A DNA stretch of 45,599 bases from a bacterium (GTDB taxonomy: Bacteria; Patescibacteriota; Minisyncoccia; Minisyncoccales; PEYH01): the NCBI GenBank assembly GCA_021163545.1, contig JAGGTU010000045.1, positions 1-45,599 of the forward strand. The letters run 5' to 3'. Below are positions 4,632 to 45,461 of this stretch, in pieces. The notes below the pieces were generated by a model. That model did no database searches, was not told the origin of the DNA, and was given only the letters and a program-made list of their open reading frames with translations. Position numbers and translations under genes: made by a program. Each line of letters starts with the position of its first letter. The stretch's first letter is position 1.

Positions 4632-5210
4632 ATGGAGCGTTCTTTAACATTGAAAGGTCACAGACTTATGCTACTTTATAAGAAGGAGGAGATAGATAAG
4701 GCAATCAAGAGGTTGGCAAAAGAAATATATAAAACTTACTGCTCATACCTTACCGAGAAAAACTTTCTTTTAAAAATAATCGTGATCTTAGAGGGAGGAA
4801 GATGGTTTGATGCAGCCCTTGCAATGGAGCTTGGTAAATTGTTTCCCGTGGGCGCTATAGCCCACGATAGTATTTCTGTTTCAAGTTATAAAGATAATAC
4901 CAGCCCCAAAGAGGTTCAAATCTTAAAAGATACAAAAAACCCCATCGGTGGACAGCATGTATTAATAGTTGATGATATAGTGGATACAGCTGGAACGCTG
5001 GCAAAATTGTTAAAAATACTGAAGGCGCGAAATCCAGCCTCTTTGAGAACTTGTGTGCTCATAGACAAGACACCAAGAAGAGAAAAGGAAATCCCTTTGG
5101 ACTTTGTTGGGTTTAGGCTTCCAAAACCACTATTCCTCATAGGCTTTGGTTTAGACTGGGCAGAGGCGGGACGCGAATTAGAGGATATCTATTATATTGA
5201 GGGATTGTAG
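4632..5210 (+). CDS. hpt: hypoxanthine(-guanine) phosphoribosyltransferase
   Basis: PRPP-binding motif VLIVDDIVDTAGTL. The ATG at 4632 follows the SD AAGGAGGTGA (4617-4626). The GTG at 4623 in the ORF track lies inside that SD, so it is unlikely to be the start. Confidence 0.85.
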   Translation: MERSLTLKGHRLMLLYKKEEIDKAIKRLAKEIYKTYCSYLTEKNFLLKIIVILEGGRWFDAALAMELGKLFPVGAIAHDSISVSSYKDNTSPKEVQILKDTKNPIGGQHVLIVDDIVDTAGTLAKLLKILKARNPASLRTCVLIDKTPRREKEIPLDFVGFRLPKPLFLIGFGLDWAEAGRELEDIYYIEGL

Positions 5211-6076: not shown

Positions 6077-6097
6077 AGTTTCTTTGGAAATTTGGTG

Positions 6098-6237
6098 TTT
6101 CTGACAAAATTACCCTTCGCTCAGCTGCGCCTACTCTGCTAAGCCTCCCTTCGCCACTTAGCGGGGTCTTGCTCGGCTAAGCAGGAGTAGATCCCACTGC
6201 CTACCTGAGGCTGAACTCAGGGTAATTCTGCCAGAAA
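6098..6237. other. GC-rich long-hairpin element A (140 nt) in the efp-femAB spacer
   Basis: A 19 bp outer stem pairs 6098-6116 with 6219-6237. An inner 15 bp stem pairs 6131-6145 with 6175-6190. There is also a CCTGAG/CTCAGG hairpin at 6204-6221. The element is GC-rich in an AT-rich background. Confidence 0.55.
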
Positions 6238-6318
6238 GTGTTTGAACGAGCTCTTAACTAACAATTCAGCCTGCGTGGCGCGTTTTCAAAAAATTTTATT
6301 GTGATCACTGAAGCAAAT

Positions 6319-16279: not shown

Positions 16280-16302
16280 TTGCCTGGGAAGTAATTTGAA
16301 AA

Positions 16303-16450
16303 AGCGCTCGGCAACAAAGTTTCAAAGTACCGGCTGCCCAAATCCCAGCGAGATTTGGCAGCCTGAGGCCCTGGGCGGCTGACTCCTCGCTTCGCTCGGA
16401 GACCGTGCTCAGCCGTCTCCGAGAGCTACTTTGAAACTTGTTGCCTCGCT
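16303..16450. other. GC-rich long-hairpin element B (148 nt) in the dnaK-dnaJ spacer
   Basis: A ~24 bp outer stem pairs 16303-16329 with 16427-16450. Inner hairpins pair 16332-16344 with 16352-16363 and 16395-16403 with 16415-16423. Confidence 0.55.
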
Positions 16451-16511
16451 TTTACAGGAATATCGCTATTCTCAATTAGCTCAAATAATATTGGCAACCA
16501 AATAAAAAATT

Positions 16512-28046: not shown

Positions 28047-28355
28047 TTATTCAATTACAATTTCTTTATTCAAAAAGAAAACAATTTGTTTCCAAAAATT
28101 TATTAATTTAATTTTAGCTTTTTGATGCCACCAAAGTTTAATTTTTTCTCCTAAATTCAAGAAAAAAGGAAGGATTTTTTGGTGCCAAAAAGTACTAAAA
28201 GAGCCAAAATATGGTTTTGTTGAAGTGACAACTTTATGAACAAACTCTTCTGCCTCCTCTTGTCCCGGAGGACCTATTTGGGAAAAAGTAAATGAAGGCA
28301 GAAAGAAAACACCTATTAAAGCTAAAAACAGAGCAATAATTATTAAAACTCTCAT
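28047..28355 (-). CDS. small membrane/secreted hypothetical protein (102 aa)
   Basis: N-terminal hydrophobic helix. An ATGA start/stop overlap with gltX suggests translational coupling. Confidence 0.45.
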   Translation of the reverse strand: MRVLIIIALFLALIGVFFLPSFTFSQIGPPGQEEAEEFVHKVVTSTKPYFGSFSTFWHQKILPFFLNLGEKIKLWWHQKAKIKLINFWKQIVFFLNKEIVIE

Positions 28356-39287: not shown

Positions 39288-40351
39288 ATATACGCTTGTT
39301 TAATCCAAGTTATAAGTTTCTCCATGTCTTTAAAGCGATTTTTTGAGCCCAAAATTACATTTATAATAAAGCCGTCTTTTAAAGTTGGGTGTTTGATCAC
39401 CAAAAGAAAGCATTCTTGTGCAAGAGGGGTGTAGCCGGTTTTGCCAAAAATAATCTCATTTGAATATTTTGCAAGAAGTTCGTTTGTATTTTTTACTTTA
39501 TGATGGAAAGAATTGTCGGTTCTATATAAATAAAATTCTTTTTTTTGAGTAAGTTTAATTAAAAAATCAGCCCGCGGATCTGTTTTACTTTTTTGAATAA
39601 TAAACTTTGCTAGTTTGGCTAAGTCTTTTGCTGTTGAATAGTTATATGGCTCACCTGAGAAATCCGGATCAAGTCCTATAGGGTCAACGAATCTTGAATT
39701 TATAAGTCCTATTTTCTCTGCCTCTTTTTGCATTAGCCCAACAAACTTTTTTACTCCTATTACCTCTGCTAAGGCAAAAGTAGCATCATTGCTTGATTCA
39801 AGCAGCATAGAATGCAGAAGATCTTTAACGAAAAACCTCTCCCCTTCTTTGAAAAACCCTATCTCTTCTTCTGTTTCAATAGCTTCCTTTGAAAATTGTA
39901 CAATTTTGTTTAAATCGTAGTTTTCTACGATTATAAAGCCTGATAAAATCTTGCTTAAACTGGCAATGGGCACTCTTTTTTGAGGGTTTTTAGCAAACAA
40001 GAGGTATTCGTTTCCAAGTTCGTCTACTGCCACAGAAAGGACTGCAGTAGCATCAATGTCCAACGGATCTACGTCCCATCTTCGGAAAGGTTTTAAGAAT
40101 GAATAATCTACAGGAATTTGGGCAAGCATTTGATTATAAATCTTGGAAGTATATTTCCAATTAAGATATCCTTCAAATATCTGTTTAAACTCAAACAAAG
40201 CAGCTCCAATGCCACAAAGTAGTAATAATATTAGAGAAAATTTAAAAAAGCGCCTCAGCTTTGGTTTGTTCTGCCAGTTGAAAAATCTGCCCAAATTTAT
40301 TAAAAAATTCAACAACTTATTTATCCTCATTTTTATCTTCCTGCTTTTCAA
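39281..40351 (-). CDS. serine-type D-Ala-D-Ala carboxypeptidase (S11, PBP5-like)
   Basis: SxxK (IASLSKIL), SxN (ESSNDA) and KTG (GKTGYT) motifs, plus an N-terminal TM anchor. The exact start is uncertain because the ORF overlaps the aspS 3' end. Confidence 0.8.
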   Translation of the reverse strand: MKSRKIKMRINKLLNFLINLGRFFNWQNKPKLRRFFKFSLILLLLCGIGAALFEFKQIFEGYLNWKYTSKIYNQMLAQIPVDYSFLKPFRRWDVDPLDIDATAVLSVAVDELGNEYLLFAKNPQKRVPIASLSKILSGFIIVENYDLNKIVQFSKEAIETEEEIGFFKEGERFFVKDLLHSMLLESSNDATFALAEVIGVKKFVGLMQKEAEKIGLINSRFVDPIGLDPDFSGEPYNYSTAKDLAKLAKFIIQKSKTDPRADFLIKLTQKKEFYLYRTDNSFHHKVKNTNELLAKYSNEIIFGKTGYTPLAQECFLLVIKHPTLKDGFIINVILGSKNRFKDMEKLITWIKQAYIW

Positions 40352-41732
40352 CTTTTATATGTAGTTCTTTTAATTGTTCTTCTCCTACTTCAGATGGGGC
40401 ATTCATCATCAAATCGCGGGAGTCTCCTGTTTTTGGGAAAGGAATAACCTCTCTAATGTTTGGTTCTTTAAGCAATATAGCAAGAAGCCTATCAAGACCA
40501 AGCGCAATTCCACCATGAGGAGGGACTCCATATTCAAAAGCCTCAAGAAGATGGCCAAATTTTTCTTTGACCTCTTCTTTTTTATGACCCAACACCTCAA
40601 AAACAGTTTCTAAAATTTCTTTTTTGTAACTTCTTAAACTTCCTCCCCCAATTTCATATCCATTTAAGACTAAATCATATTGATATGCTAAAATTTCCCC
40701 CGGCTTTTCCTTAATCAATGAGAGATCCTCTGTTTGAGGACGAGTGAAAGGGTGATGCATTGCTTTCCATCTTTTTTCTTCTTTTGACCATTCAAACATA
40801 GGAAAATTAACAACGAACAAAAAGGCTAATTCGTCATCATTTTCTTTGTTTTCTCGTAAATCCGGCTTGTCAGTTCCATACTCTTTCATGACATCTTGAT
40901 AATTTAAACGTAAAAAAGGAAACTCTTTGATTCTTTTTTCCGGAAATATTTTCTTAACAACCTCTTGTATCATTTTTTCAACTATTTGAAGAATATCTTC
41001 TTGTTCTACAAAAGACATCTCTATATCAATTTGGGTAAACTCTGCTTGTCTGTCAGCTCTCGGATCTTCATCTCTAAAACATCTTGCAATTTGAAAATAT
41101 TTTTCTACTCCTGCAACCATTAAAAGCTGTTTATATTGTTGAGGGCTTTGTGGAAGAGCATAAAATTTTCCAGGTTGAAGACGCGAGGGAACCAAAAAAT
41201 CTCTTGCACCCTCAGGTGTTGATTTGGTTAAAATAGGGGTTTCAACTTCTACAAAACCATTATCTTTTAAGAAATTTCTTACTTCATGAATCACCTCCTG
41301 GCGAAGAATCAAATTTCTTTTTAATCTCTCTCTTCTTAAATCTAAATATCGATATTTTAATCTTTTTTCCTCGCTTATTTCGTATCCTTCACTCTGAATT
41401 GAAAAAGGCAAACTTTTTGCCTCAGATAGTATTTTAAGGTCCTGGGCCAATAATTCTATTTCTCCTGTAATCAAATCAGGATTTTCTGTGCCTTTTGGTC
41501 TTTTTTGGACTACTCCAGTTATCTCTACTACCCACTCTGGTTTTAGTCGTTTTGCTAAATCAAAAACCTGAGAGGATGTATCTTTTGCAAATGTTACCTG
41601 CAGAAGACCAGATCTATCTCTTAGATCTATAAAAATAATTTTTCCATGAGTACGAGCAGTATTTACCCAGCCACAGACTTTTACTTGTTGGTTAATAAAA
41701 TTTGGTGTTTGAAAAATAAGAGTTCTTTTCAT
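40317..41732 (-). CDS. aspS: aspartyl-tRNA synthetase, bacterial-type core without the GAD insertion domain
   Basis: FYALPQSPQQYKQLLMVAGVEKYFQIARCFRDEDPRADRQAEFTQIDIEMSF, then DKPDLRE runs almost directly into NFPMFEW...MHHPFTRP. Motif 3 is GGIALGLDRL. Confidence 0.92.
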   Translation of the reverse strand: MKRTLIFQTPNFINQQVKVCGWVNTARTHGKIIFIDLRDRSGLLQVTFAKDTSSQVFDLAKRLKPEWVVEITGVVQKRPKGTENPDLITGEIELLAQDLKILSEAKSLPFSIQSEGYEISEEKRLKYRYLDLRRERLKRNLILRQEVIHEVRNFLKDNGFVEVETPILTKSTPEGARDFLVPSRLQPGKFYALPQSPQQYKQLLMVAGVEKYFQIARCFRDEDPRADRQAEFTQIDIEMSFVEQEDILQIVEKMIQEVVKKIFPEKRIKEFPFLRLNYQDVMKEYGTDKPDLRENKENDDELAFLFVVNFPMFEWSKEEKRWKAMHHPFTRPQTEDLSLIKEKPGEILAYQYDLVLNGYEIGGGSLRSYKKEILETVFEVLGHKKEEVKEKFGHLLEAFEYGVPPHGGIALGLDRLLAILLKEPNIREVIPFPKTGDSRDLMMNAPSEVGEEQLKELHIKVEKQEDKNEDK

Positions 41733-42100
41733 AAATAATTTTTTATTTTTTCTACAATTTGGGAGGGCGTATAATTAGCTTTAAGTAAATATTCTTTTAC
41801 TCGAAGGCGCTTTGCCTGTTGTAGTAATTTTTTGTCTTCTAAATTAGAAAGAATTATAACAGGAGTTTTCTTACCTTCTTTTCTTATTTCTTTTAAAAAC
41901 GAAATTCCATCTTTACGTGGTAAGAGTATATCCAAAATAATTAAATCTATGTTTGTTTCTTTTGCAAGCATTTCTTTTCCCTCCTCGGCGCTCTTGACAG
42001 ATAAAACTTCCGCCCCTAATTCTGTAAATTTTTTACTATAAATCTCCACTAATAGAGGCTCATCCTCTATTAAAAGAATCTTCTTTGCGTCTTGTGGCAT
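41729..42100 (-). CDS. stand-alone response regulator receiver (CheY-like) protein
   Basis: KILLIEDEPLL, DLIILDILLPRKDG, and PVIILSN...K. No output domain is present. ATGA overlap with aspS. Confidence 0.85.
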   Translation of the reverse strand: MPQDAKKILLIEDEPLLVEIYSKKFTELGAEVLSVKSAEEGKEMLAKETNIDLIILDILLPRKDGISFLKEIRKEGKKTPVIILSNLEDKKLLQQAKRLRVKEYLLKANYTPSQIVEKIKNYL

Positions 42101-42106
42101 TATCCT

Positions 42107-42115
42107 ATTATATCA
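42107..42115 (-). promoter_or_regulatory. extended -10 promoter element of the receiver-aspS operon
   Basis: On the minus strand, TGATATAAT (TGn + TATAAT). The ATG at 42100 lies 6 nt after the -10 box, which is leaderless geometry. Confidence 0.5.
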
Positions 42116-42129
42116 AAAAATCTTGAAAT

Positions 42130-42470
42130 TTCCAGAAAAAAATACCCCACAAGGGGGCATAATAAGGGAGGGCGAGGCGGACTTTCAAGGAACTGGTGGG
42201 ATGGAGTGAGGGGATGCCGCGCCCTCCCATTTTTGGCTTTTTGAAAAAGATCTATTAAATAATATGCAATATAAGTCTACAAAGCAATGAAGGGGGAGCA
42301 GAGGGAGAAAAGGCTTTAGCCTTTTCTCCCTCTGCGGACACAAGGCTACCTCTGGGGTTGAGGTAGCACGTTATTGGCAGAAAGCGCGACAGTAGACTCT
42401 TTATTGTTGATAGGGGTGAGTAAGATGTCCAAACCGCGCTTTCCGCCATTTCTATGTCAAACAACTTCAT
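42130..42470 (-). ncRNA. candidate structured RNA R2 (~335 nt), family unknown
   Basis: It runs from promoter 42502-42475 to a terminal hairpin (42166-42174 with 42220-42228), then CCCC-UUGU-GGGG and a U7 run (42136-42156). Internal helices: 42376-42388 with 42435-42447, 8 bp 42345-42352 with 42360-42367, and a perfect 17 bp stem 42298-42314 with 42319-42335. Confidence 0.45.
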
Positions 42471-42474
42471 TTTT

Positions 42475-42502
42475 ATTATATGCTGCTTTAAATAACTGTC
42501 AA
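42475..42502 (-). promoter_or_regulatory. near-consensus sigma70 promoter (minus strand) for R2
   Basis: TTGACA (42502-42497), a 16 nt spacer, TATAAT (42480-42475). Confidence 0.6.
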
Positions 42503-42573
42503 CAAGAGTGCATGTATCGCTCCATAAGGTATCAGAAAATCCAATGATGCTAATAATATGTTTCAATTGATTG

Positions 42574-42634
42574 AGAAAAAATAAAGGGGCAGACCATGGA
42601 GGTAGCTGCGGTGAAAGGAAAAATGGTCTGCCCC
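42574..42634 (-). terminator. intrinsic terminator ending R1
   Basis: A perfect 12 bp stem pairs 42586-42597 with 42623-42634 (GGGGCAGACCAT/ATGGTCTGCCCC). It is followed on the minus strand by UUUAUUUUUU. Confidence 0.7.
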
Positions 42635-42830
42635 GGAAGGGTAGTGGCACCCAACTTGGCAAGGGGCGGAAAACGCGAGCTGAAAATGGGGGTTTAAGGA
42701 TGAGGGGAATAAACGCCTTTTGGTGGTGAGACACGTTTTCCGCCCCATCTTAGACTTGTAAAGGGTCTAACAGGGAGGGCTCCTTAGCTCAAGGAGCCAA
42801 TGAGCCCTCCCTCTCCCAGGGTAAGCTGGT
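42574..42830 (-). ncRNA. candidate structured RNA R1 (~250 nt), paralogous to R2
   Basis: It runs from promoter 42866-42837 to terminator 42574-42634. Helices: 15 bp 42663-42677 with 42732-42746, and 10 bp 42773-42782 with 42802-42811, which competes with 42778-42785/42791-42798. Confidence 0.45.
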
Positions 42831-42836
42831 ACTTTC

Positions 42837-42866
42837 ATTATAAATTTAATTGTCAAATTCTGTCAA
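42837..42866 (-). promoter_or_regulatory. sigma70 promoter (minus strand) for R1
   Basis: TTGACA (42866-42861), an 18 nt spacer, TATAAT (42842-42837). Confidence 0.55.
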
Positions 42867-42878
42867 GTTCGGTAAAAT
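42850..42878 (+). promoter_or_regulatory. candidate valS promoter
   Basis: TTGTCA (42850-42855), a 17 nt spacer, TAAAAT (42873-42878). It interdigitates with the divergent R1 promoter. Confidence 0.5.
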
Positions 42879-42919
42879 AAAAAAGATGCTTTTATCAAAA
42901 ATAAGTTTAATACCCAAAA

Positions 42920-45277
42920 ATGGAAAAACAGTACAATTTTAAAAAATCTGAAGATAAGTGGCAGAAATTTTGGGAGAAAGAAAAGATTTATAAATTTGAC
43001 GCAAAAAAGAAAGGCAAAATTTTTTCTATTGACACTCCCCCACCCACTTTAAGTGGCAAAATGCATCTTGGGCATTTTTTCTCATATGCCCATCAAGATA
43101 TTATTGCAAGATATCACAGGATGCTTGGAGAAAACGTTTTTTATCCTTTTGGAGTTGATGATAATGGTCTGCCAACAGAGAGATTAGTTGAAAAGATAAA
43201 TAAAGTTCGACTTTTTGATTTGGGAAGAGAGAAATTTGTAAAGTTGTGCCAAAAAACTATCAAAAAAATTCTCCCTGAATTTGTTTTTGATTGGAAAAGA
43301 ATGGGTTTGTCTTGTGATTTTTCGTCTATTTACTCCACAATTTCTCCTGAGGTTCAAAAATTAAGTCAATATTATTTTCTTGAACTTTATAAACAAGGAA
43401 GAATCTATCAGAAGGAAACGCCGGTTTTATTCTGTCCCGAATGTCAAACAGCAATTGCTCAGGCGGAAGTTGAGGAAGTAGAACAGCAAACCTATTTTGT
43501 GGATATTGGTTTCAAGTTAAAAGGTGGAGGTCAGATTATAATTTCTACCACAAGACCAGAGCTTCTTCCAAGCTGTGTAGCAATTTTTGTGCACCCCAAA
43601 GATAAAAGATATAAAAAACTTGTTGGCAAAACTGCAATTGTTCCAATTTTTGAGCAGGAAGTACCTATTTTGACAGATGATTTAGTAGATCCCAAAAAAG
43701 GAACAGGAGTTGTAATGTGTTGCACTTTCGGAGATACTACTGATCTTGAATGGTATTTTAAATATAAACTTCCTCTTAAAATTTCCATCACAAAAGATGG
43801 AAAAATGAACAAGCTTGCAGGAAGTTTTGAGGGTTTGCCTATTAAAAAAGCGCGCAAAGCCATCATAGATGAATTAGAGAAAAGAGGCTTACTTCTTTCC
43901 AAAAAGGAAATAATCCATATTGTAAAAGTTCACGAAAGGTGTCAGACAGCAATTGAAATCTTGCCAGCTCGCCAATGGTTTATTAAGTACCTTGATCTCA
44001 AAGACAAGTTTCTGGTTGAATCCAACAAACTAAATTGGTATCCAAAGTTTATGAAAGCCAGATTAGATAACTGGATTAAAGGGCTTAAATGGGATTGGTG
44101 CATTTCAAGACAAAGATATTTTGGAATTCCAATACCTGTTTGGTATTGCAAAAGATGCAATGAAATAATTCTACCTCGAGCTAAAGATTTACCAGTTGAC
44201 CCCCTTCATCAGAAACCAAAGAAAAAATGTAAATGTGGATCCAAAGAATTTGTTCCTGAAAAAGATGTTTTAGATACTTGGGTTACCAGTTCTTTAACAC
44301 CACAAATTGCTTTGTCATTGATAAAAAATAAGAAAGTTCGCGAGAAAATGTTTCCGATGTCTTTAAGACCACAAGCTCATGACATTATTAATTTCTGGTT
44401 ATTTTATACTCTTGCCCGTTCGTATTTGCTTTTCAAAAAAATTCCCTGGAAAAATGTAATGATTTCCGGTTTTGTTTTAGATCCAAAAGGTGAGAAAATG
44501 TCTAAATCCAAAGGGAATGTAGTAGAACCTCAAACTGTGGTTGCAAAATATGGAGCCGATGCAGTAAGATATTGGGCTTCGCAAGCAAAATTAGGAGAAG
44601 ATCTAAGATATTCAGAAGAAGAGATAAAGCAAGGTAAAAGAACTGTAACAAAGCTTTGGAATGCTTCAAGATTTTCTTTGATGCATCTTAAAAAATACTC
44701 TCCAAAAAGAGTAAATCCAAAGGAATTGGAAGATGAGGATAAATGGATTTTAACCAAGCTTTATAAGACCGTAAAAGAGTATCGAAATTTTATGGATAAA
44801 TACGAATATTCAAAAGCAAGAGAGGTCTTAGATAGATTTTTCTGGAAAGATTTTTGCGATAATTATTTAGAGATAATAAAGCCAAGAGTTTATAATCCAG
44901 AATCTTCCCAAAAATTGAAGTCAGCTCAATTCACTCTTTACACTTCCCTACTCTCAATTTTGAAACTCTATGCACCCTTTATGCCTTTTATCGCTGAGGA
45001 AATCTATCAGATGTATTTTAAAAAGTTTGAAGAAGAAAAAAGCATTCACATAACTTTGCTTCCAAAGCCAAACAAGAAATTATACTTCCCAAGAACTGCT
45101 CATAATTTTGAATTCGCAATTGATGCAATATCGCAAATTAGAAAATACAAATCAGAACACAAACTACCAATGAACGCAGAGATTGAAGAGATAAAATTAA
45201 AAACGAAAAACAAAAAACTTCTAAAAAAATACACCCCTCTTTTGGAAAACGTTTTGAATGTAAAGAAGATTAAATAG
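42920..45277 (+). CDS. valS: valyl-tRNA synthetase (compact, 785 aa)
   Basis: TPPPTLSGKMHLGH (HIGH region), DWCISRQRYFGIPIPVWYC, KMSKSKGN, and an editing-domain TTRPE...GTGVVMCCTFGD. Confidence 0.9.
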   Translation: MEKQYNFKKSEDKWQKFWEKEKIYKFDAKKKGKIFSIDTPPPTLSGKMHLGHFFSYAHQDIIARYHRMLGENVFYPFGVDDNGLPTERLVEKINKVRLFDLGREKFVKLCQKTIKKILPEFVFDWKRMGLSCDFSSIYSTISPEVQKLSQYYFLELYKQGRIYQKETPVLFCPECQTAIAQAEVEEVEQQTYFVDIGFKLKGGGQIIISTTRPELLPSCVAIFVHPKDKRYKKLVGKTAIVPIFEQEVPILTDDLVDPKKGTGVVMCCTFGDTTDLEWYFKYKLPLKISITKDGKMNKLAGSFEGLPIKKARKAIIDELEKRGLLLSKKEIIHIVKVHERCQTAIEILPARQWFIKYLDLKDKFLVESNKLNWYPKFMKARLDNWIKGLKWDWCISRQRYFGIPIPVWYCKRCNEIILPRAKDLPVDPLHQKPKKKCKCGSKEFVPEKDVLDTWVTSSLTPQIALSLIKNKKVREKMFPMSLRPQAHDIINFWLFYTLARSYLLFKKIPWKNVMISGFVLDPKGEKMSKSKGNVVEPQTVVAKYGADAVRYWASQAKLGEDLRYSEEEIKQGKRTVTKLWNASRFSLMHLKKYSPKRVNPKELEDEDKWILTKLYKTVKEYRNFMDKYEYSKAREVLDRFFWKDFCDNYLEIIKPRVYNPESSQKLKSAQFTLYTSLLSILKLYAPFMPFIAEEIYQMYFKKFEEEKSIHITLLPKPNKKLYFPRTAHNFEFAIDAISQIRKYKSEHKLPMNAEIEEIKLKTKNKKLLKKYTPLLENVLNVKKIK

Positions 45278-45288
45278 TTGGCTAAAGT

Positions 45289-45393
45289 AAAAAGGGTGGT
45301 TTTCGGATTTGGCCTTTCGGGATTGTTTTTTCGCGCGAGAGCCCACTTCCCTTTCACCTCCTTTTTAGATTTTTTCCGAAAACCACCCTTTTT
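45289..45393. terminator. GC-rich long-hairpin element C; probable bidirectional terminator between convergent valS and trpS
   Basis: A perfect 19 bp stem pairs AAAAAGGGTGGTTTTCGGA (45289-45307) with TCCGAAAACCACCCTTTTT (45375-45393), enclosing a 67 nt insert. A/T runs at the stem ends give U tracts on both strands. Confidence 0.55.
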
Positions 45394-45461
45394 GCCAAAA
45401 GAATATACCTCCAAAGATCTATATTTATTTTAATTCTAATTTACCAAACATGTCAATTCAA

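Follow-up and report, generated by a model that had tools for sequence, protein, structure and literature searches.

In an uncultured member of the Patescibacteria (CPR), the gap of about 820 bases between two tRNA-synthetase operons contains a small non-coding RNA gene in three tandem copies, here called R1, R2 and unit C. This gene evolves fast and has not been described before. The gap lies in a stretch of DNA of 45,599 nucleotides that is referred to below as the window. The family is new, but it belongs to a known class, bacterial sRNA genes, and introduces no new principle. We give about even chances to the fuller reading, that R1, R2 and unit C are tandem paralogs of an undescribed sRNA family in one Patescibacteria lineage that putatively acts in trans through anti-SD C-rich segments.

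The neighbours of the locus are valS, the receiver gene, aspS, an S11 peptidase gene and a glycosyltransferase gene. The spacer has a GC content of 0.43-0.53 versus approximately 0.33 in its surroundings, and its minus strand is C-rich. Relative to shuffled sequences the minus strand gives folding z scores of -7.4 and -9.4, and the plus strand gives weaker ones (-5.5 and -7.1). An earlier note on this DNA had described two non-coding, structured, C-rich minus-strand RNAs with promoters and terminators. All the promoters, helices, hairpins and motifs that it listed are present at the coordinates it gave, and the general description is supported by the promoter count, the folding scores, the homologs and the broken reading frames described below. 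R1 and R2 are real units, but the family members number three, as judged with a model trained only on foreign single-unit loci (the leave-out model). In the whole window this model reaches E<0.01 just three times, always within the spacer (42369-42454, 42658-42751 and 42157-42237). A plus-strand stretch at 45289-45394 that was matched by our first family model is not matched by the leave-out model and is not counted as a member.

Promoter signals lie at the following positions (L numbers denote loci in other genomes):

42837-42866, minus strand: R1 promoter, TTGACA-18-TATAAT, 12/12 in the promoter scan, conserved in L001, L005, L072 and L160
42475-42502, minus strand: R2 promoter, TTGACA-16-TATAAT, 12/12 in the promoter scan, conserved in L001 and L072
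42259-42287, minus strand: weak promoter-like site of unit C, TTGCTT-17-TATTAT, 8/12, read from the sequence and aligning with the relatives' TTGACA-17-TATAAT
42100-42134, minus strand: promoter of the receiver-aspS operon with extended -10, TGGAAA-16-TGaTATAAT, conserved in all relatives, including those without the RNA
42850-42878, plus strand: valS promoter-like site from the promoter scan, TTGTCA-17-TAAAAT, divergent from the R1 promoter and overlapping it

The R1 and R2 promoters are the only perfect TTGACA-N16-18-TATAAT sites in the 45.6-kb window, where 0.04 are expected, and two such sites were reached in 0 of 100 shuffles. TTGACA promoters are kept in the relatives' units as well; the unit C site scores under the threshold of the promoter scan. 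The -10 of the operon promoter is only 6 nt from the receiver ATG at 42100, and therefore the receiver-aspS mRNA is expected to be leaderless; the promoter directly abuts the sRNA terminator. The earlier claim that the neighbouring genes have their promoters outside the units stands for the receiver-aspS operon, whose promoter is separate, but not for valS, whose promoter-like site overlaps the R1 promoter region. The transcript ends of R1, R2 and unit C given here are predictions from sequence.

R1 consists, in order, of a short 5' hairpin, the GGGAGGGCUC hairpin, the core closing helix with its C-rich interior and a terminator with a large loop:

42574-42830, minus strand: R1 transcript, about 255 nt between predicted ends, fold z -7.38, structure kept in L005, L001 and L072
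42772-42812, minus strand: R1 5' hairpin GGGAGGGCUC...GAGCCCUCCC, from the fold; its outer stem is invariant among orthologs and its inner part is remodelled
42663-42746, minus strand: R1 family core, a 15-bp closing helix around a 52-nt interior, from covariation; leave-out model 22.6 bits, E 0.004
42576-42634, minus strand: R1 terminator, from the fold and orthologs, with a 12-bp perfect stem, a conserved 25-nt loop (UUUUCCUUUCACCGCAGCUACCUCC) and a U tract

The arms of the R1 core helix are GGGGCGGAAAACGUG (42746-42732) and CGCGUUUUCCGCCCC (42677-42663), and the interior that they enclose is 40% C and 8% G and contains UCUCACCACC and CCCCUCAUCC. In the terminator 42634-42623 pairs perfectly with 42597-42586, with the U tract following; among the orthologs, one pair of this stem has changed in a compensatory way from A-U to G-C, and two G-C pairs have become G-U. 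The same terminator module also ends R2 in L001 and L072.

R2 is organized around a core of the same kind:

42290-42468, minus strand: R2 body, from the fold, with the core closing helix, a GCUACCUC/GAGGUAGC hairpin (42367-42345) and an 18-bp perfect hairpin (42335-42298)
42375-42448, minus strand: R2 family core, helix UGGCGGAAAGCGCG/CGCGCUUUCUGCCA around a 44-nt interior, from fold and covariation; leave-out model 26-27 bits

Within this helix GGCGGAAAGCGCG (42447-42435) pairs with CGCGCUUUCUGCC (42388-42376), and ACUCACCCCUAUC sits in a 20-nt loop of the predicted fold. The 18-bp hairpin, which shows one G-U change among orthologs, is not followed by a canonical U tract in the R2 body; since R2 has no convincing terminator of its own, it probably reads through into unit C, which would then also be the 3' end of the R2 transcript.

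The third copy, unit C, lies closest to the receiver gene:

42135-42256, minus strand: unit C, leave-out model 22.0 bits, E 0.006 (whole window) or 1.4e-5 (local), aligning over its full length with L002-4 and L166

A 5' AAUAGAUC motif (42256-42249) is followed by a helix AUGGGAGGGCGCGGC/GCCUCGCCCUCCC (42230-42216 and 42178-42166) around a C-rich interior (CAUCCCCUCACUCCAUCCCACC) and by a terminator made of a small hairpin (42160-42142) and U7. On the minus strand GGGAGGGC/GCCCUCCC hairpins occur at 42811-42773 and 42228-42166. What had been described as a clamp hairpin at the 3' end of R2 is really the third copy of the family closing helix, with an AA to GG change compensated by UU to CC. 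The alignments indicate that unit C is the ortholog of the relatives' single unit.

Across the family the closing helix is 14-17 bp long, with the consensus GGAAAGCGCGG/CCGCGCUUUCC. With the arms of 11 related sequences registered by hand, 95.2% of the cells pair, versus 83% in shuffles and at most 54% when the arms are slid against each other, and 8 of the 15 pairs change on both sides. The covariation score of 0.47 versus 0.24 was equalled in 0 of 500 shuffles, and a wider sequence set agrees. Examples are L166, in which GGGAAAGCGCGG becomes GGGAAGACGCGG together with CUUUCCC becoming UCUUCCC, and the AA to GG with UU to CC exchange of unit C. Read on the promoter strand, the core helix has 7 G.U or U.G cells and 0 A.C cells; the strand assignment made earlier from such wobbles thus holds across the homologs, with further G-U changes in the R1 terminator stem and the 18-bp hairpin. 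These patterns show that compensatory changes have preserved the helix, and that its wobble pairs exist solely on the transcribed strand. The paralogy of R1 and R2 is likewise upheld by the shared covarying helix and the family model, but direct sequence similarity between them is confined to the helix arms.

A homolog search in relatives, one of the checks that had been proposed, found the family conserved, patchily, at the same locus. Homologous units, one or two in each, occupy the same gap between valS and receiver-aspS in seven related Patescibacteria lineages (L160, L001/L072, L005, L002-4, L161-165 and L166-169, with L157/158 borderline). L160, a 98% strain, comes from metagenome JGI 3300017593, which also contains L152 and L162. 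Each of the relatives' units has a promoter, a 14-17 bp closing helix, a C-rich and G-poor interior and a terminator that abuts the conserved promoter of the leaderless operon; in L005 the unit is located directly before aspS. A 5' AAUAGAACCUU motif is conserved in L002-4, L161-165, L166 and unit C. Unit length ranges from 120 to 330 nt and interior length from 42 to 100 nt, varying between members, and the interiors are poorly conserved even between close orthologs, whereas the closing helix is far more conserved (in lineages with 52-64% receiver identity). The close relatives L152-156, L159 and L170 keep the operon and its promoter, with the RNA unit absent at the locus. More distant receiver-aspS loci from a metagenome scan (L073-L151, 30-54% receiver identity) have no RNA unit there and carry a histidine kinase gene or other genes upstream. 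Taken together, these comparisons show a family passed down at this site in seven lineages, which has been duplicated, with an exchange of modules, in the clade of the window and has disappeared from some of the close relatives. The locus provides a concrete sRNA family backed by comparison, in which duplication, module exchange and loss can be traced among close relatives.

Two side observations belong here. The losses from L152-156, L159 and L170 indicate that the family is dispensable. The unit invariably points the same way as the downstream operon and lies directly against its promoter, an arrangement that would also fit a role in cis.

No Rfam family reaches its gathering threshold anywhere in the window, and at E<=10 the spacer and the L002 unit give only sub-threshold noise (rli52, miRNA hairpins, SorY and mmgR). 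ARAGORN finds no tmRNA. Thus the earlier judgement that the locus is not RNase P, tmRNA, SRP, 6S or T-box RNA is confirmed by the cmscan-type Rfam search and ARAGORN, and it extends to all other Rfam families. The mmgR/suhB and SorY matches on the L002 unit score 18 bits, versus gathering thresholds of 41 and 111, with E about 0.2. These RNAs and the L002 unit share a single-stranded, C-rich (UCCUCCC-like) segment and, after it, a GC hairpin that serves as terminator, and cmscan aligned the 3' third of the L002 unit to them; only the terminator and a few C's match, which is resemblance and not membership. A search for literature on sRNAs of CPR/Patescibacteria found no relevant reports. Regulatory RNAs in this group are thus almost undescribed as far as our search went, and neither Rfam nor the literature searched holds such a family.

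The composition of the interiors suggests a function. Across the family they are 24-42% C and 7-21% G, and the motif CACC[ACU]CC occurs in 6 of 12 interiors versus 0.49 expected, the motifs falling in predicted loops. In the window CCCCUCA lies at 42707-42701 and 42213-42207, CUCACCACC at 42730-42722, CUCACCCC at 42420-42413 and GCUACCUC at 42606-42599 and 42367-42360. In the L002-L004 interiors, UCACCUCCUU reproduces the canonical 16S 3' tail exactly. The earlier note had called the C-rich motifs complementary to the GGAGG-type SD used in the window. They are indeed C-rich and anti-SD-like, but those of R1 and R2 match the anti-SD only with one mismatch (CACCACC and CACCCCU), and strong SDs (AAGGAGGUGA), although present, precede only 4-5 of the 44 window genes, among them those at 4632, 11594, 33645 and 34112. 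Those genes rank top in a duplex-energy scan; over all 44 start regions, a small set, the scan shows no enrichment versus random coding segments, and start regions bind more weakly on average.

Trans-acting anti-SD pairing is our best guess for the function, suggested by these motifs and predicted loops. The RNAs would act in trans, with the single-stranded C-rich segments (often CACCNCC) as the pairing region. These segments would pair with the G-rich ribosome-binding sites (AAGGAGGUGA) of the minority of genes that have them, and the pairing would occlude the 30S subunit from the mRNA. The stable closing helix and the terminator may present the seed and shield the RNA from degradation. If the anti-SD reading is right, the family would reveal a means of controlling the few SD-led genes of a reduced genome that is mostly SD-less or leaderless; should it be wrong, the conserved helix hints at an RNA-protein partnership. 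We find it rather unlikely that the more elaborate version holds, in which a locus-fixed CPR sRNA cassette has diversified rapidly by duplication and module swaps and carries copies or near-copies of the 16S anti-SD tail in a protected loop, as ribosome mimics that titrate the few strongly SD-led mRNAs; if true, reduced genomes that are otherwise SD-less or leaderless would have a post-transcriptional control system devoted to their SD-dependent minority of genes. As a separate observation, the most conserved part of the RNA is the helix and not the proposed seed, which suits a protein-binding or processing role at least equally.

Among the other explanations, the one that survives best, though we still consider it unlikely, makes the units a cis module of the receiver-aspS operon, either an attenuator or read-through switch or a source of transcriptional interference with the abutting leaderless promoter, with the RNAs as by-products or leaders. 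The common orientation of unit and operon in every carrier lineage, the position directly before aspS in L005, the run of the terminator U tract straight into the conserved operon -35 (CTGGAAA) and the likely read-through within the cluster, where R2 lacks a clean terminator, all fit such a module. However, the ATG is separated from the terminator by a conserved promoter with an extended -10, which gives a leaderless mRNA; the operon and its promoter persist without the RNA unit in L152-156, L159 and L170; and a single leader is a difficult reading of three units that each have promoter elements. Sensing of a ligand or tRNA would require conserved interiors, and these are not conserved; nor does any T-box or other leader model match. 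A T-box leader is recognized by a Stem I with specifier loop and a conserved T-box antiterminator sequence. We do not regard the units as such leaders, because there is no Rfam match, their interiors lack conservation and the operon is set apart from the RNA by a promoter.

Somewhat less probable still is an RNA with a protein partner, in which the conserved helix would serve for binding or processing (by RNase III or another dsRNA-binding protein, for instance) or as a Y-RNA-like scaffold, and the pyrimidine-rich interior would be a spacer or a sponge for a C-binding protein. Conservation of the helix far beyond that of the interior, the 42 to 100 nt range of interior length and the 5' AAUAGAACCUU motif shared by several lineages and unit C would all be accommodated; however, none of the linked genes (valS, receiver, aspS, S11 peptidase and glycosyltransferase) is a candidate partner, Rfam gives no match to Y RNA or another RNP family, and the enrichment of anti-SD-like motifs in the interiors is left unexplained.

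We think it improbable that the locus is a selfish or structural DNA element of the MITE/REP type, with the helix as terminal inverted repeats at the DNA level and the promoters and terminators incidental. The interior does evolve fast between conserved inverted repeats, close relatives carry the unit only patchily, copy number runs from 0 to 3 with swapped modules, and the window has other GC-rich spacers with long hairpins. Yet the units always occupy one locus in one orientation, a search for a dispersed repeat or MITE found no further copies in the window's other 44.8 kb, target-site duplications are not evident, and perfect consensus promoters are conserved in orthologs. The non-Watson-Crick cells of the arms, moreover, are G.U on the transcribed strand (7 versus 0 A.C), which DNA-level constraint does not predict.

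It is very improbable that the locus is a gene for a small protein or a leaderless peptide, or a housekeeping RNA (6S, SRP, RNase P or tmRNA) that has diverged strongly: minus-strand ORFs of 71, 61 and 159 codons exist in the spacer, the ATG at 42470 is 4 nt after the -10 box and strong promoters are usual in housekeeping RNAs, but indels and stops interrupt these ORFs in the orthologs, codon periodicity is lacking, no housekeeping family matches in Rfam even at E<=10 or in ARAGORN, and the unit is absent at the locus in close relatives and present in three copies here. The 71-codon ORF, raised earlier as the coding alternative, is not conserved; it suffers frameshifting indels and an early stop in L001, and its substitutions fall 23/24/19 by codon position. 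From one lineage to another, the reading frame that starts with the AUG at the base of the helix differs in both frame and length. These comparisons indicate that the R1, R2 and unit C units are non-coding.

Other candidates were rejected. A replication origin was suggested by the divergent genes; the spacer contains no DnaA boxes, and the local skew tracks gene orientation. A tandem array of the TIGR or CRISPR-like kind was also considered, and the spacer contains none. A TIGR array is described as a short-period tandem array adjoining a Tas (Nop-domain) gene (PMC12045711), whereas the neighbours here are valS and receiver/aspS.

Among known sRNAs there are two further comparisons. RsaE/RoxS RNAs are Hfq-independent, occur in AT-rich genomes, have unpaired C-rich loops proposed or shown to pair with G-rich SDs, and end in an intrinsic terminator; C-rich loops (here predicted) and an intrinsic terminator are shared with the present family. 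RsaE, however, measures about 100 nt, its sequence is strongly conserved and it has two conserved motifs of the UCCC type, whereas the units described here are 120-330 nt long with non-conserved interiors and a conserved closing helix, and the RsaE/RoxS covariance model gives no match in them at the gathering score or at E<=10.

The Cuckoo/CcsR sRNAs of the Alphaproteobacteria (RSs0680, alpha-r14-type) form tandem paralogous clusters of variable copy number, built of modular stem-loops whose fast-evolving stems are kept by compensatory mutations and whose anti-SD-like C-rich motif is unpaired; they are located in a conserved intergenic neighbourhood, with an exact CCUCCUCCC in each of 2-4 adjacent small hairpins (PMC4615179). 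The present family differs in belonging to another phylum, in the absence of the DUF1127 partner gene and in a reversed pattern of conservation, since here the long closing helix is conserved and the C-rich region is a large interior. CCUCCUCCC is absent from the RNA strand of the spacer, where the only CCUCC occurrences are at 42167, 42598 and 42774. The families are alike in variable copy number, in stems kept by compensatory mutations, in anti-SD-like C-rich motifs in (here predicted) unpaired regions and in the clustering of paralogs in a conserved intergenic setting, with three copies here and one or two in the relatives, always in the gap between valS and receiver-aspS.

The 819-nt gap at 42101-42919 lies between two divergent operons, and we consider it highly probable that it carries a real, previously undescribed family of small RNA (sRNA) genes, which is present in the window as three tandem paralogs on the minus strand. 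The flanking genes are as follows.

40317-41732, minus strand: aspS, in the same operon as the receiver gene
41729-42100, minus strand: receiver, first gene of its operon
minus strand: S11 peptidase, then glycosyltransferase, the remaining members of the receiver-aspS operon
42920-45277, plus strand: valS, divergent from the receiver-aspS operon

GC content in the gap reaches 0.43-0.53, against about 33% for the window, and C is in excess on its minus strand. The promoters of the upstream units R1 and R2 are both 12/12 and lie where an earlier note had placed them, as do all the helices, hairpins and motifs that it named; apart from these two, the 45.6 kb contain no perfect TTGACA-N16-18-TATAAT site, and the number expected is 0.04. 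The minus-strand RNAs fold at -106.5 kcal/mol (R1; z -7.4 versus shuffles) and -126.2 kcal/mol (R2; z -9.4), and the plus-strand z values are weaker (-5.5 and -7.1). At 42851-42878 lie 2.8 copies of the 10-nt unit TGTCAAATTC; this repeat is the source of two minus-strand TTGACA boxes and of the TTGTCA box of a divergent valS promoter-like site, so the R1 and valS promoters overlap back to back.

The earlier note had counted two units. A covariance model trained without the window sequences, built solely from single-unit homologous loci of other genomes or metagenomes (L002-4, L161, L165 and L166), finds three places in the window at E<0.01, all within the gap. These matches, and the parts of the third, are listed here.

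42658-42751, minus strand: R1 core, 22.6 bits
42369-42454, minus strand: R2 core, 26-27 bits
42157-42237, minus strand: unit C, 22.0 bits
42287-42259, minus strand: weak promoter-like site of unit C, TTGCTT-17-TATTAT
42256-42249, minus strand: 5' motif of unit C, AAUAGAUC
42160-42142, minus strand: terminator of unit C, followed by U7

The hairpin GGGAGGGC...GCCCUCCC, previously described as a clamp at the 3' end of R2, is the third model match. Over its whole length unit C can be aligned with the single unit found in L002-4 and L166, so it is the ortholog of that unit; in its helix AUGGGAGGGCGCGGC/GCCUCGCCCUCCC a change of AA to GG is compensated by UU to CC. R1 and R2 are additional copies that lie upstream and have new, perfect promoters. 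No U tract stands behind the 18-bp hairpin of R2, and thus the R2 transcript probably runs on into unit C.

Related loci were retrieved by searching valS against GTDB species genomes, by searching a receiver alignment against metagenomes, and by following receiver homologs to their contigs. The closest relatives place the organism among the uncultured Patescibacteria (CPR); their own taxon labels differ by source (Saccharibacteria, Pacebacteria or "bacterium"). Homologous units lie in the same gap and on the same strand as in the window.

L160 (98% strain): R1 and R2, differing from the window by one loop base
L001, L072: R1 and R2, terminator modules swapped
L005: R1 alone; receiver gene absent
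L002, L003, L004: single unit
L161, L162, L163, L165: single unit with an additional 5' helix
L166-169: single unit
L157, L158: borderline unit

The units share a plan. A promoter of the TTGACA/TATAAT type is followed by a short single-stranded 5' stretch, which reads AAUAGAACCUU in several lineages. Next, a closing helix of 14-17 bp (consensus GGAAAGCGCGG/CCGCGCUUUCC) surrounds a C-rich, G-poor interior of 42-100 nt (24-42% C, 7-21% G), and a GC hairpin with its U tract comes last. Directly after the terminator stands a conserved operon promoter, CTGGAAAT...TATAAT, whose -10 box is 6-7 nt from the operon ATG (6 nt in the window), so the receiver-aspS mRNA is leaderless. The distribution is patchy: L152-156, with receivers 85-86% identical to that of the window, have a 190-nt AT-rich gap and no unit, the gap shrinks to just ~95 nt in L159 and L170, which are not carriers either, and more distant CPR receiver-aspS loci have different genes upstream.

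Gene content at this locus is also fluid. Where the receiver gene is lost (L005:5560-5650) the sRNA unit lies directly before aspS, and at L171:2866-4132 a HicAB toxin-antitoxin pair and an HD-domain gene stand between receiver and aspS. Three loci (L161:2420-2500, L162:1990-2480 and L165:470-560) show the receiver promoter with its -35 part, CTGGAATTTTGTTAAATTT, duplicated 2-3 times in tandem, the copies alternating with C-rich repeats CTACCTCAGCCACC[G/T]CCCACCGCCCTTA; similar C-rich repeats occur upstream of the sRNA promoter. Outside its own clade, the nearest relatives of valS are in DPANN archaea (Woesearchaeota, Pacearchaeota; 52-60% identity), with other bacteria ranking behind them, which suggests that an archaeal-type valS was gained by transfer.

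Covariation was measured on the two closing-helix arms of 11 distinct units in an ungapped register chosen by hand. Standard pairs fill 95.2% of cells, versus 83% with partners shuffled and at most 54% with the arms slid; 8 of 15 pairs are altered on both sides, and the covariation score is 0.47 versus 0.24 (0/500 shuffles as high). A wider sequence set gave the same picture. Compensations include a G-C<->A-U exchange that sets the R1 clade apart from the remaining units, a double swap in L166 and, in L005, an A-U. The core helix has seven wobble cells; each of them reads G.U or U.G on the promoter strand and would be A.C on the opposite one, bearing out across homologs the earlier strand assignment. 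Further changes are two G-C->G-U and one compensatory A-U->G-C in the terminator stem of R1, and one G-U in the R2 18-bp hairpin. Together the compensations and wobbles argue for selection on a minus-strand RNA rather than on DNA inverted repeats, as judged from few, related sequences in a hand-chosen register.

Coding, the alternative raised in the earlier note, fails: the 71-codon ORF (ATG 42470) suffers indel frameshifts, stops after 41 codons in L001 and has substitutions of 23/24/19 at codon positions 1/2/3. A 61-codon ORF in R1 likewise diverges by frameshift, and where AUG or GUG stands at the helix foot, the frame and length of the opened ORF vary by lineage. By these comparisons the units are non-coding. 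They belong to none of the known families compared: an Rfam scan gave no family at gathering score (hairpin noise only at E<=10), RsaE, T-box and housekeeping-RNA models included, and ARAGORN found no tmRNA. The cuckoo motif CCUCCUCCC of cuckoo/CcsR RNAs is absent from the spacer, which likewise has neither an array of the TIGR type nor a Tas gene beside it. The nearest analogues are RsaE/RoxS and the clustered cuckoo/CcsR RNAs that Alphaproteobacteria carry (PMC4615179); in this phylum almost no regulator of the kind was found described, and a full-text literature search returned no comparable CPR sRNA family.

As to function, we tentatively propose, at somewhat less than even chance and on circumstantial grounds, an Hfq-independent, anti-SD-type sRNA that would act in trans, its C-rich segments covering ribosome-binding sites. 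The 16S-tail-like CACC[ACU]CC occurs in the interiors of 6 of 12 units (0.49 expected; about four independent lineages). L002-L004 have an exact UCACCUCCUU; R1 and R2 have versions with one mismatch, UCUCACCACC and CUCACCCCUA, and in addition CUACCUCC in the conserved 25-nt terminator loop. These segments fall in predicted loops, and enrichment and placement together fit such a mechanism. Strong SDs, always AAGGAGGUGA, precede 4-5 of the 44 predicted genes (4632, 11594, 33645 and 34112; weaker at 28352), with products including a phosphoribosyltransferase, a DAG-kinase-like protein, a PD-(D/E)XK nuclease and a hypothetical protein; most genes have no SD. SD-led genes rank top in a duplex scan, in which start regions as a class bound no better than random coding segments. 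There is room for a role of the helix in protein binding or processing, since the helix is conserved within the family and the proposed "seed" is not; the invariant terminator-promoter junction allows as well that the unit influences the leaderless receiver-aspS operon in cis.

An element at 45289-45394 (plus strand), just past the valS stop at 45277, has a 14-bp helix GGGUGGUUUUCGGA/UCCGAAAACCACCC around CCCACUUCCCUUUCACCUCCUUUUUAG, in which the 16S tail is copied exactly as UCACCUCCUU. Read on the minus strand, the same bases yield a perfect SD at 8-10 nt ahead of a GTG that opens a 41-codon ORF (45346-45221). The element scored 25.6 bits with our first family model; the leave-out model has no match there, so any homology to the sRNA family is tentative. 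U runs behind the helix on both strands give it the look of a bidirectional terminator, apparently one that separates convergent genes, of which the minus-strand gene is putative. GC-rich intergenic regions (0.47-0.48 GC) with a long closing helix and complex interior also lie at 6077-6318 (after efp) and 16280-16511 (between dnaK and dnaJ), and comparable long hairpins follow valS in L001 (8340-8560); the lineage of the window seems rich in structured intergenic elements.
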